Positions 29,226 to 32,789 of a stretch of DNA of 64,000 nucleotides are shown here, in pieces. Location: the NCBI GenBank assembly GCA_017539325.1, contig JAFYHD010000067.1:821-64820 (forward strand), read 5' to 3'. The stretch is from a bacterium (lineage in GTDB: Bacteria; Auribacterota; UBA3054). The position numbers and the translations under genes are program-made. A model generated the notes under the pieces. The model was not told the DNA's origin and searched no databases. It was given only the letters and a program-made list of their open reading frames with translations. Position 1 is the stretch's first letter. Every line of letters begins with the position of its first letter.

Positions 29226-32200
29226 TCAAAATGCGGCAGGCTTTTTGAAAAGCGCGCTAAGCAGCAAAAGCAACGCCAAAAAAGCCGTAGGTTCAGGAAT
29301 CTCGCCGGGATCGTATCCTGGGCTTCCATATTTATCCTCGGAAGCTTGCCAGGAAGATCTTTCGCTCATTTTGCCGTACGGCGTCCTGTTGTCCTTCAAT
29401 TCTATGGAATAACCTTTTCCCTGGCATTCGCTGAACCAATCGGCGTTTATGGAGAAGGCATAGTTGGGAAGCGTCAACTTCACAATATCGGCTTTAATGC
29501 TGCCGTCGTATTCCGCTAAAATGTTCGCTTTGCTCTCAGGATAACGCCTGAAAAAAGCCTTTTTGCTGGCTACCAGAAGGGCGTAGCTTTTCGGAGGAAC
29601 CAAAGCCGGGCTGTTGGGCAGCGTGAATTCCAAAGTCCCCTTCAAATAGAAATTGGCAAGATCGACGGGACTTTCCGAACGATTGTGGAATTCCAAGTAT
29701 TCGTATTTGGAGACCTCTCCGAGTTCAGGATCGCTGCCGTCCCCTTTTTCCTCCTCGCTTGGTTTCAAAGGATCATACATCATCTCCGTGACAACAACGT
29801 CGCACTCGTCAGAAACGGTGTAATCAGCCGCGGCTTCCATTTTGACGTCGATCTCATCGGGAGAATAGCAGCAGCGGAACCTTAAGCTTCCGTTCACCGG
29901 GACCGACTCTTTCAAAGGCTTGGCAGTCGGAGACGTCCATGGATCGCTTCCGTCAGTCGTATAGACGATCTGATAGCATCCGGTCGCAGTAACCTCAGTC
30001 CCGGTCCAATACCGTCCTCCCTGGGGTATAAGCCGCGGCGGATCGCAATCAGGGAACCAGCCTCTCTCCCTGTACTGCTTGAGCGTCAGCTCATGACGGA
30101 TCGGGAAGAATTCATCCATAATGTAATCGACTTCCTTCTGCCAGTCCCTGTTCCTCTCATAAGGCATATATTCCGGCTGTTGTGAATAGCGTTTCCTGAA
30201 GATGGAAGCGCCCCAGCGCGCCGATTCACAGACCACAGCATACGATATCGAATCGGATAATTCTTTGAAAAGCAAACGCATGTTCTCGACCGTGGCGGGT
30301 CCGGAATTAAAATAAGTCTCGCATACTTTCGAGATGAATATTTGACGATAATCAGCCACTCCTATCAAATGCTGGTGCAGATAACGGGGATTGAAGAAAT
30401 AGTAGTATCTGGTGAAAAAATTGCTTATGGTTCCGGTAAAATCAAGCTGTTCATTTCTTTTCATAAGCGTGTATTCGTTGTCATGGCTTATGAATTTGAA
30501 ACCGTCTGGCGAGACTTTGTTGTAAAGCGCGTAGAAGTTGTTGACAAACATGCGCTCGGATGTGAGCGGACAGTCGTCGTTTGAAGTAATGTTGTTCACA
30601 ATGATGAAATCGACAACGTTCGTGGCGTCGAGAAGAATCGGCAGAGAAGGATCTCTCTGACCGTTTTCGTCACGGCCAAGCATTGTATTGTAAACGCTAT
30701 CGCTCACAAAGGTTTTCGCATAGCTGAAAAGTATTTGCCATGCTTTGAAATCACCGTTTTTCACCTGCACCCTATAACTTGAGTCTGCATCGTACTTGTC
30801 GGCTTTGAGAACGTCGTAAACATCCTTTGTCCCACCGAAATAAGAGGCGCAGTAATTCTCTTCCGGACGTTCCTCAAATTCATAGAGCCCCCAATACTGT
30901 CCGTTCAGCAGGACATGATAAAAACGGCTTCTGACATACGGCGAACCGAAAGCAGCTGTCAAATATCTCACGAAAGTGTCGCGGCAATATACTGCTTCGA
31001 AAGGATCCATTTGAAAATGCCAGGAGAATTGCTGAGCCGACCTCAGGTCTATCTTTCTGAAAGCCTTAGCACCCTCTTCCCCAAAAAGTGGAAATTCTAA
31101 ATTCGCCGGGCCGTATTTGTTTTTAAAAACAAACCGCAGGGAATGTTTGGGATTAAATTTGTTTCTGCTTGAATTGCCTTTTATCCTCAAAGCGCAGCCA
31201 ACGGAGAAACCGGACGATCCGTCGTTTTGAATGAGCTCCAGGTGAGCGAAGCGCTCCCAGTTGTCGCCGGAATTCGAAGGGTTCACATATATGCCGGTGG
31301 TCGCGTTGAAAAGATTCCCAGGGCTGGTAATTATGGAAATCATTGGAAGTTGTTTCAAGCCTGGGACTATCAGATCGGAATACGTTTGGCTTTTAGATAT
31401 CCTTTCATCCATGCCGTAATTAAACAAACAGCCGCAATAATCGTTGGTTGGCCACTTGGGGCCGGGCTTTTCTGTTCCCTGCTCCGCAATGTCAGCGTAT
31501 CTGACATAGGTGGCCGCGAACTCATCACCGGCGTCCTTGTTTTTGAATGCCGTCGCTCTTAGGATCGTTGTGGAGCTTATCCTCAAAGGCTCTGAGTAGA
31601 GCAAAGACTTTCCTTTCGTAGGCGTCGTACCGTCCAAGGTGTACCAAATAGCGGAATCTGAGGTCGGGCAAGCAAGACTCAGATCGAACGGCTGCTCGAA
31701 TACGCAACTATTATTTGAGGCAGAAACAGGCGCCACTTCTGTCACCAATCCGCTGTTAGCAGATCCCGGAGTAGATATTCTAAGACGCCCGATCTTTTCC
31801 TCGCCGGGCAGCAATTTTTCCGCCACAAGCTTGGGCTTGATAATGACGCTCTCGTTTTCCGTGGTCTTGACTGAAACTGAAATTGCAAAAACGTTCGTCC
31901 CTGGTCGGAGCTTTCCGACAGCTTTTGAGATCTCGAAGATCTGCTCTTCCAAAGCATCAACATAATCCCTCGGTTTTTTGGCAGCTTGGGTATGATCGTT
32001 TACCTGCCAGAAATTTTGATCGGTCAATACCTTTTCCCCGTTGAGATAAAGTTGGAAGGCATCCTGGAAATAAATCTTCAATCCTAAATAATTGAATTCG
32101 TCGCCATTGTTGACGACGAAATAGGCGCGCGTATAGGCTACTCTGTTACTGCCACCGTACAATTCTTCTCTGAGATCACAACCCAGCATGCCGGTAAACT

Positions 32201-32789
32201 CAGAACGCTCCTTAAGATCATATCCTGCGCCATATCTCCCCTTCTTCCATCCGGAATCATCAAAATCGGAAGCATACCAGTTCGTGTTGACAGAAGTAAC
32301 CGCAGAGACAAAACATTCCGCGTTATTATCCAAAAGCGTGATCTCTTCAGAAATACCAGAGGAAGCTACGCCGTAGGTCTTGTTTTTTCCCAGAGGCGGA
32401 AAGGCCGGCGCAAACTCCGAGATAACTTTGCCATTCGGATCGCACATTCCGAGATACTCGCCTTCATCCGAGAGCTTGAAGTTGCAATGGAGCCCGTTTT
32501 TATTGGATGTGTCCCCTGAAGCGTAAACGAGCAAAAAGCCGCCGGGAGCAAGGGAAACGTCAGGGAATGTCCATTTGAAGGGATCTTTTTGATCATCAGT
32601 CAATCCGTATCCCTGTAAATTGACGGTCTCATCGCCCTCGTTGTAGATTTCGATCCAATCGTAAAGATCCCATTTACCGGGGGAATAGAAGCTCTCGTTG
32701 TCAGCCATAAACTCGTTTATCCGCACCGCGGAAAGCGAAAAGGCTGATATCAGCGAAAGAATTGCCAGTAACTTGACGAGCGTTTTCAT
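29226..32789 (-). CDS. CotH-family kinase-like protein with two lamin-tail domains and PEP-CTERM
   Basis: 1187 aa; N-terminal LTD (RINEFMADN...DWIEIYNEGDETVNLQGYGLTDD); central CotH-like core (...YHVLLNGQYWGLYEFEERPE...); second LTD (EYLEFHNRSESPVDLANFYLKG); C-terminus IPEPTAFLALLLLLSALFKKPAAF. Confidence 0.7.
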   Translation of the reverse strand: MKTLVKLLAILSLISAFSLSAVRINEFMADNESFYSPGKWDLYDWIEIYNEGDETVNLQGYGLTDDQKDPFKWTFPDVSLAPGGFLLVYASGDTSNKNGLHCNFKLSDEGEYLGMCDPNGKVISEFAPAFPPLGKNKTYGVASSGISEEITLLDNNAECFVSAVTSVNTNWYASDFDDSGWKKGRYGAGYDLKERSEFTGMLGCDLREELYGGSNRVAYTRAYFVVNNGDEFNYLGLKIYFQDAFQLYLNGEKVLTDQNFWQVNDHTQAAKKPRDYVDALEEQIFEISKAVGKLRPGTNVFAISVSVKTTENESVIIKPKLVAEKLLPGEEKIGRLRISTPGSANSGLVTEVAPVSASNNSCVFEQPFDLSLACPTSDSAIWYTLDGTTPTKGKSLLYSEPLRISSTTILRATAFKNKDAGDEFAATYVRYADIAEQGTEKPGPKWPTNDYCGCLFNYGMDERISKSQTYSDLIVPGLKQLPMISIITSPGNLFNATTGIYVNPSNSGDNWERFAHLELIQNDGSSGFSVGCALRIKGNSSRNKFNPKHSLRFVFKNKYGPANLEFPLFGEEGAKAFRKIDLRSAQQFSWHFQMDPFEAVYCRDTFVRYLTAAFGSPYVRSRFYHVLLNGQYWGLYEFEERPEENYCASYFGGTKDVYDVLKADKYDADSSYRVQVKNGDFKAWQILFSYAKTFVSDSVYNTMLGRDENGQRDPSLPILLDATNVVDFIIVNNITSNDDCPLTSERMFVNNFYALYNKVSPDGFKFISHDNEYTLMKRNEQLDFTGTISNFFTRYYYFFNPRYLHQHLIGVADYRQIFISKVCETYFNSGPATVENMRLLFKELSDSISYAVVCESARWGASIFRKRYSQQPEYMPYERNRDWQKEVDYIMDEFFPIRHELTLKQYRERGWFPDCDPPRLIPQGGRYWTGTEVTATGCYQIVYTTDGSDPWTSPTAKPLKESVPVNGSLRFRCCYSPDEIDVKMEAAADYTVSDECDVVVTEMMYDPLKPSEEEKGDGSDPELGEVSKYEYLEFHNRSESPVDLANFYLKGTLEFTLPNSPALVPPKSYALLVASKKAFFRRYPESKANILAEYDGSIKADIVKLTLPNYAFSINADWFSECQGKGYSIELKDNRTPYGKMSERSSWQASEDKYGSPGYDPGEIPEPTAFLALLLLLSALFKKPAAF

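Follow-up and report, generated by a model that had tools for sequence, protein, structure and literature searches.

In the 64,000-nucleotide stretch of contig JAFYHD010000067.1 analysed here (the window), the minus strand carries at positions 29226-32789, stop codon included, a single uninterrupted open reading frame (ORF) that, by the ORF list and its translation, runs from ATG to stop and encodes a CotH-family multidomain protein of 1187 aa. Judged by its domains, the gene product belongs, as an ordinary member, to the very large and already annotated group of CotH kinase family and lamin-tail-domain (LTD) proteins, with a predicted layout of signal peptide, LTD, a jelly roll like the N-terminal domain of GH2 enzymes, CHB_HEX_C domain, CotH core (residues ~430-920), second CHB_HEX_C domain, second LTD and PEP-CTERM-like tail. 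The CotH core is probably catalytically competent, and the protein as a whole is most likely, on the features set out below, an active surface phosphotransferase. Taking everything together, we favour with moderate confidence the explanation that this is an ordinary CotH/LTD protein, exported, sorted by an exosortase and competent as a phosphotransferase, whose gene was acquired horizontally and did not evolve as a partner of the metzincins encoded beside it.

The CotH assignment is solid, since the Pfam match and an AF2 model that resembles the CotH of Bacillus cereus agree on it. The Pfam CotH profile (PF08757) matches with 63.5 bits (E 3.2e-17; cutoff 23.8) over residues 534-875 (nt 30165-31190), covering profile positions 1-311 of 322, and the extended kinase-fold core, delimited by Pfam, by a family profile against 5jd9_A and by AF2/Foldseek, spans residues 430-920 (30030-31502, minus strand, as are all features of the gene). 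When the whole protein was used as a single phmmer query against the PDB, nothing was found at E <= 0.01, and an NCBIfam scan of all 1187 residues gave no family match. A profile built from 19 aligned core sequences (alignment A1) matches B. cereus CotH, 5jd9_A, at E 8.4e-4, and in this alignment NFDGF...VHN of 5jd9 pairs with ...SNDDCPLTSERMFVNN of the query and IPWDYD with ISHDNE. Modelled by AF2 with a pLDDT of 83.9 and a pTM of 0.87, the core finds 5JDA by Foldseek with an E of 5.6e-14, a probability of 1.00 and a target-normalised TM of 0.76, and 5JD9 likewise at ~6e-14; the matches that come after these two are other atypical kinases (CtkA, HipA, PI3K) at E > 0.01. An earlier reading of the sequence alone, made without database searches (the sequence-only reading), had placed at these coordinates a CotH core with twin LTDs and a PEP-CTERM-type tail and had quoted the motif YHVLLNGQYWGLYEFEERPE, and the ORF list, Pfam and the translation confirm all of these, with the motif lying at residues 624-643.

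Competence of the core is probable because all of its recognisable active-site residues are retained, as counted across the cores of 265 homologs after alignment to the A1 hidden Markov model (HMM). The presumed catalytic-loop Asp, D739 (codon at 30573-30575), pairs with the Asp of the B. cereus CotH motif NFDGFVHN and is identical in 262/265 cores; the catalytic-loop Asn, N751 (30537-30539), pairs with the Asn of the 5jd9 motif VHN, follows a 7-residue insertion of the query subfamily to which AF2 gives low pLDDT, and is identical in 263/265; and D770 (30480-30482), presumed to bind metal, falls opposite the first Asp of the Bacillus CotH motif WDYD and is identical in 262/265, with E772 close by in 264/265. 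Candidates for the N-lobe Lys and Glu are K548 (263/265) and E640 (264/265), an inferential assignment in which K548 was placed by conservation and manual alignment, without structural superposition. D739 and D770 correspond, as we take it, to D228 and D251 of B. subtilis CotH: the link between the B. cereus and B. subtilis numberings relies on motif identity and a 23-residue spacing, and the B. subtilis numbering came out one residue off in this comparison, which makes it a lead, albeit one in keeping with the 5jd9 alignment. In B. subtilis, CotH loses its catalytic activity with either D228Q or D251A (PMC7821199). Conservation of the active-site residues across the 265 cores led us to reject the alternative of a degenerate pseudokinase. 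The sequence-only reading had made its kinase call depend on a significant CotH HMM match and on retained active-site residues, and with a Pfam match of 63.5 bits and kinase-type catalytic residues kept (D739 and D770 in 262/265) the call holds on both counts. As a separate observation, the motif ESARWG contains an Arg and a Trp, R858 and W859, that are invariant in 265/265 cores (residues 857-859, window 30213-30221); these two lie in a C-terminal helical extension that does not align with Bacillus CotH, and the motif is specific to the subfamily.

Around the core the protein is built from beta-sandwich domains behind an export signal. A Sec-type signal peptide is predicted at residues 1 to ~21, MKTLVKLLAILSLISAFSLSA (32727-32789), a by-eye reading that relies on a basic N-region, a hydrophobic core and small residues before V22. 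Scanned whole, the protein matches the LTD (PF00932) at 95.2 bits in two stretches and CHB_HEX_C_1/Fn3_assoc likewise in two. The first LTD, the best Pfam stretch, covers residues 20-126 (32412-32732; 18-130 by local jackhmmer) and the second residues 993-1105 (29475-29813; 995-1109 by local jackhmmer). The first CHB_HEX_C_1/Fn3_assoc domain (PF13290, PF13287) covers residues 367-420 (31530-31691), and a marginal second CHB_HEX_C_1 domain was placed by Pfam at residues 922-953 (29931-30026). With the C-terminal 288 residues scanned alone, the second LTD and the second CHB_HEX_C barely pass, at 35.0 bits against a cutoff of 34.3 and at 22.1 against 22, respectively. Between the first LTD and the first CHB_HEX_C domain, residues 127-350 (31740-32411, ~220 aa) gave no match in the Pfam scan and form, by fold similarity, a galactose-binding-like jelly roll that resembles the N-terminal sugar-binding domain of GH2 enzymes. 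The sequence-only reading was thus right in the domains it named and missed the jelly roll and both CHB_HEX_C domains, as well as the anomalous base composition of the gene described below.

Its description of the domain combination as unusual, by contrast, does not survive comparison. In the best 120 homologs, to which our architecture counts refer, CotH, LTD, Fn3_assoc and CHB_HEX_C occur together without exception (120/120), LTDs flank CotH on both sides in 108/120 by local jackhmmer, and the cellulosomal protein Cthe_0239 has been tabulated as LTD-LTD-Fn3-CotH (PMC6083626). Since the combination is the norm of the family, the protein is an ordinary member of it. That family is large: among sequences clustered at 50% identity, the core profile retrieves 15,022 cluster representatives at E <= 1e-3, a number that falls to 11,253 at E <= 1e-10 and to 5,348 at E <= 1e-30. 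Proteins of this kind already bear the NCBI names "CotH kinase family protein" or "lamin tail domain-containing protein". The best CotH matches in a scan of genome contigs are 36-38% identical and come from metagenome-assembled genomes of Planctomycetota, Phycisphaerae and Verrucomicrobiota.

Surface routing is suggested by the C-terminus, where residues 1164-1187 (29229-29300) read as a PEP-CTERM-like sorting tail composed, by TIGR02595 and by eye, of IPEP, TAFLALLLLLSALF and KKPAAF. In translation the protein ends ...EIPEPTAFLALLLLLSALFKKPAAF*, with KK followed by only four more residues. It thus has an exact PEP motif at the canonical position, a hydrophobic helix, a basic cluster of Lys-Lys where Arg is usual, and a signal peptide at the other end. 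The match to TIGR02595 was seen only on scanning the 42-residue tail alone, where it reaches 15.8 bits (E 0.019), just short of the cutoff of 16, over model positions 1-19 of 24, that is, the PEP motif and the helix without the Arg-rich end; scanned in the same way, the tail has no match to PF07589. A PEP-CTERM motif is accordingly scored as present, borderline by HMM. In three neighbouring proteins of the window the C-terminus consists of TPEP, a hydrophobic segment and an RR/R tail, and of these three tails one passes TIGR02595 at 19.0 bits and two fail at 14.5 and 14.2. Among the homologs, tails of the PEP-CTERM type are confined to the ten closest, P0001-P0010, of which P0002 reaches 27.6 bits on PF07589.

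The sequence-only reading had also singled out the tail KKPAAF against the Arg-rich tails of the paralogs. The difference in sequence is real, but it is a trivial variant, for the basic clusters of the relatives (GKRR, FTKR, FKHDK, RRRSL) mix Lys and Arg, so the Lys residues are not special; a new class of sorting signal defined by a Lys tail was rejected for the same free mixing. More distant relatives end instead in dockerin repeats, in C-terminal domains of the type IX secretion system (T9SS; PF18962) or in a recurrent ...RFYRVVTP. The last of these is seen as ...R(F/Y)YR(V/L)VTPxxP in P0014, P0017, P0020-P0022, P0030, P0034, P0035 and others, of Verrucomicrobiota/Planctomycetota type, and may represent a C-terminal module, or a sorting signal, that has yet to be characterised. 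Because the type of anchor varies among relatives, the catalytic cassette appears to be displayed outside the cell by whatever anchor the host lineage uses, and a shared cassette with host-specific anchors supports an extracellular or surface role.

The gene stands in a minus-strand block that runs from 43108 down to 24115 and comprises metzincin C, metzincin B (split by a stop), an esterase, CotH, metzincin A and OsmC. The three metzincins are paralogs of ~1500 aa, each with Reprolysin/Mep72-like matches, PKD domains and an intact HExxHxxGxxH. Metzincin C, the first gene (38561-43108, minus strand, 1515 aa), has HEIGHNMGGQH, PKD and a PEP-CTERM tail; metzincin A, downstream of CotH (24527-29182, minus strand, 1551 aa), has HEDGHNMGGQH, PKD and the PEP-CTERM tail that passes TIGR02595 at 19.0 bits. 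The middle paralog, metzincin B (33910-38556, minus strand), is divided into ORFs at 35242-38556 and 33910-35205 by an in-frame TGA at 35242-35244, in the context …EETK*EGTT…; the corresponding codon in the related strain L084 is AGA (Arg), within an intact gene of 1544 aa. The TGA reflects either a nonsense mutation, an error of sequencing or a site of read-through, and the N-terminal fragment would be without a PEP-CTERM tail. Upstream of CotH lies a predicted secreted esterase of the hormone-sensitive-lipase type (32786-33937, minus strand; HGGG and GDSAG; Pfam Abhydrolase_3, NCBIfam HSL subfamilies).

Co-transcription of the metzincins, esterase and CotH is plausible, because the end of the esterase gene, stop codon included, shares 4 nt with the start of CotH, CotH and metzincin A are 43 nt apart, and strong terminator-like hairpins occur only at 43195-43164, upstream of metzincin C, and at 24092-24068, bracketing the block. 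Metzincin A may also have a promoter of its own, given promoter-like matches, in the sense of consensus matches only, in the CotH 3' end and the intergenic spacer. The hairpin at 24068-24092 (minus strand; 10 pairs, 9 of them GC, with a T-run) sits just past the OsmC stop and within the 5' end of a TTG-started, TMEM260-like ORF of 481 aa at 22680-24125, and since it falls in the annotated 5' end, the true start of that ORF is probably further downstream. Further along, 11641-21227 and 21209-24125 hold a surface-polysaccharide set (MATE/Wzx-like flippase, Wzy_C-like, two GT4 glycosyltransferases, OmpA-family, TPR and TMEM260-like proteins), whose position beside the PEP-CTERM block fits the usual exopolysaccharide context of PEP-CTERM proteins. 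Genes for kdsA-D, lptA/B and a BamD-like protein in the window mark the host as a diderm bacterium.

The metzincin neighbourhood that the sequence-only reading had linked to CotH is there, on the same strand; as a conserved association it fails, because the closest relatives lack it and the CotH gene has the look of a foreign insertion. The closest relatives (L080-L083) carry their CotH genes as tandem pairs, whose second gene runs into the start of mreC, with mreD and pbp2 coming next (L080:6492-14370, L081:1-6336, L082:6457-13232, L083:2408-9183). Searches by tblastn with MreC and PBP2 across 84 loci matched only in these four, with none in the window, and mreC synteny was found in 0/79 genome loci; the MreC proteins of the four are 70-100% identical. 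A general link between CotH and mreC was therefore rejected, the synteny being confined to this one lineage.

In base composition the CotH gene is the strongest outlier of the window, with a GC of 0.478 and a third-position GC (GC3) of 0.551 against means of 0.564 and 0.745 (standard deviation 0.046) for 39 other ORFs (z = -4.2). The genomes of its closest homologs have 57-64% GC. Together with a neighbourhood that is not conserved in relatives, this makes horizontal acquisition the simplest reading, so that the gene was probably acquired into a pre-existing metzincin block and the protease linkage is local and probably recent. The related strain L084 (run SRR12177540) has the same gene arrangement, and a comparison of nucleotide identity per gene (window 19226-38890 against L084:3897-23564) gives 100% for OsmC, 99.7% for CotH (5 aa differences), 99.1% for metzincin A, 93.5% for the TPR gene, 92.9% for the TMEM260-like gene, 87.2% for a GT4 glycosyltransferase and 86.3% for the esterase; the sole alignable part of metzincin C is ~79% identical. 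This mosaic of identities implies breakpoints of recombination, including one where CotH meets the esterase gene.

In the mechanism that we favour, the protein would be exported via Sec by its N-terminal signal peptide, after which the PEP-CTERM-like helix would hold it in the inner membrane, with probable exosortase processing and delivery to the surface or exopolysaccharide layer, as in the PEP-CTERM/exosortase model. There the central kinase-fold domain would transfer phosphate to an extracellular polymer, onto which the two LTDs, the GH2-N-like jelly roll and the two CHB_HEX_C domains may dock the enzyme. Several points weigh against this picture. Neither the periplasm nor the extracellular space is expected to contain ATP, conserved residues alone are no proof of kinase activity, and the assignment of the N-lobe Lys carries the caveat given above. 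The tail falls just under the TIGR02595 cutoff, has no PF07589 match and lacks the usual Arg cluster, and no exosortase was found among the ORFs of the 64-kb window scanned with Pfam or NCBIfam. The low GC of the gene could, in addition, have causes other than horizontal transfer. The general statement of the sequence-only reading that CotH proteins are secreted kinases was overstated, since Bacillus CotH, to our knowledge the one enzyme of the family that is well characterised, works within the mother cell, on the spore coat.

The weaknesses of the tail lend themselves to another account, in which it is a membrane anchor only and the protein stays tethered in the inner membrane, facing the periplasm and acting on the envelope. 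Beyond the sub-threshold score, the Lys in place of Arg and the missing exosortase, this account could draw on the relatives whose CotH genes overlap mreC and precede mreD-pbp2, genes of envelope growth, but that synteny is confined to a single lineage, and the exact PEP motif at its canonical position, the same type of tail on three neighbours (one above threshold) and the strong PF07589 score of P0002 all speak for a sorting signal, so that we hold the anchor-only account to be highly improbable. The puzzle of the phosphate donor bears on a different proposal, namely that the protein, like the fungal CotH invasins, has no catalytic role and serves as a surface adhesin or a structural protein, with the kinase fold as scaffold only. 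An extracellular source of ATP is indeed not obvious, the protein carries multiple beta-sandwich domains of adhesion type, and a structural role has been proposed for the CotH proteins of cellulosomes (PMC12484212). A pure scaffold would, however, be unlikely to maintain the catalytic Asp and Asn, the metal Asp and the candidate Lys and Glu in at least 262 of 265 homologs, and such strong conservation even in surface-anchored forms argues that the family is enzymatic, not merely adhesive; we therefore give the adhesin very little credence. The metzincins themselves might be the partners, co-transcribed with CotH and either phosphorylated by it or sharing a matrix substrate with it. The shared strand, the close spacing between bracketing hairpins, the common type of sorting tail and the persistence of the arrangement in strain L084 would suit such coupling, but the closest homologs examined all lack metzincin neighbours, the base composition marks the CotH gene as an insertion, metzincin A may be transcribed from its own promoter, and the identity between window and strain breaks at the CotH/esterase junction, all of which leaves functional coupling very unlikely.

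More closely allied to the active surface phosphotransferase that we prefer is the question of what it would phosphorylate. The precedent of Bacillus CotH points towards a protein acceptor, whereas the jelly roll, the CHB_HEX_C domains, the association of PEP-CTERM proteins with exopolysaccharide and the CotH mutant of the Streptococcus intermedius pel cluster (PMC12345266) point towards a glycan. On the latter footing the protein could be a kinase of exopolysaccharide or cell-wall polysaccharide, modifying the sugar polymer bound by its jelly roll and CHB_HEX_C domains and so altering the charge of the matrix, which we regard as possible but unlikely, given that the only CotH enzymes with a defined biochemistry act on Ser residues in proteins (PMC7821199) and that beta-sandwich modules of this kind also occur in proteins that bind no sugar. 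Going further, the small PEP-CTERM-anchored clade P0001-P0010 might consist of true ecto-phosphotransferases that act on the exopolysaccharide or envelope of their own cell with a donor other than ATP or with locally released ATP; the intact active site, the modules of sugar-binding type, the surface routing and the relatives linked to mreCD-pbp2 are compatible with this, although we think it quite improbable. If it were true, phosphorylation of the extracellular matrix by the LTD-CotH family, with its ~15,000 clusters, would be a widespread and unrecognised bacterial modification.

As regards what is new, the protein is a further member of a large, annotated family whose function is unsolved, and being one more member with standard architecture it adds little leverage by itself. 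A kinase outside the cell and away from ATP is nonetheless a real puzzle, and the locus offers a compact candidate for tests, with a protein of 1187 aa, a defined anchor and possible substrates encoded adjacent to it. Extracellular proteins with CotH domains are abundant and occur in cellulosomes, in T9SS cargo of Bacteroidota type and among PVC-type surface proteins, and the sequence-only reading agrees with the literature in calling their role uncharacterised, for it is stated there as undefined (PMC12774918, PMC12484212).

Among known systems, the Bacillus CotH spore-coat Ser kinase (5JD9/5JDA; B. subtilis) shares with the query the atypical kinase fold, the Pfam family and the positions of the catalytic-loop D...N and the metal-binding D. 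The two are only 17% identical, and the query core is longer (~490 aa against 359), with the 7-residue insertion in its catalytic loop and the invariant ESARWG; Bacillus CotH is moreover a single-domain protein, whereas the query adds a signal peptide, accessory beta-sandwich domains and a C-terminal sorting tail. Closer in setting are the cellulosomal CotH proteins (CseP/Cthe_0044 and Cthe_0239 of C. thermocellum, Ccel_1101 of R. cellulolyticum and the CotH proteins of anaerobic fungi), which are likewise extracellular, held in a surface complex and of undefined function (PMC12774918, PMC12484212); these are anchored by dockerin-cohesin pairs in Gram-positive or fungal hosts, as opposed to the PEP-CTERM tail and the diderm host with lipopolysaccharide genes (kds, lpt) seen here. 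In Streptococcus intermedius, SIR_1594, a predicted secreted CotH-Fn3 protein of the pel cluster, has been linked genetically to exopolysaccharide-dependent aggregation (PMC12345266). It resembles our protein as a predicted secreted CotH-domain protein of a non-sporulating bacterium and differs in its Gram-positive host, its other accessory domains and its neighbours with predicted roles in phosphate metabolism; the activity of both proteins is predicted. The proteins of the PEP-CTERM/exosortase system (TIGR02595) share with the query the signal peptide, the PEP motif, the helix, the basic residues and the clustering with like-tailed proteins, and from the typical case the query departs in lying 0.2 bit below the curated cutoff, in having Lys-Lys for an Arg-rich end and in the lack of an exosortase among the window ORFs scanned. 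The nearest likeness is to the CotH/LTD proteins of Planctomycetota, Verrucomicrobiota and their relatives (MBO7435200.1, MBR6462446.1), in which the domain set of LTD, jelly roll, CHB_HEX_C, CotH and LTD recurs in 120/120 best matches and the ten closest (38-48% identity) share PEP-CTERM tails; the best non-self match is only 43-48% identical to the query, and most of these relatives, at 1300-2000 aa, are longer, carry additional modules (Ig, PA14 or LamG) and end in other C-terminal anchors.

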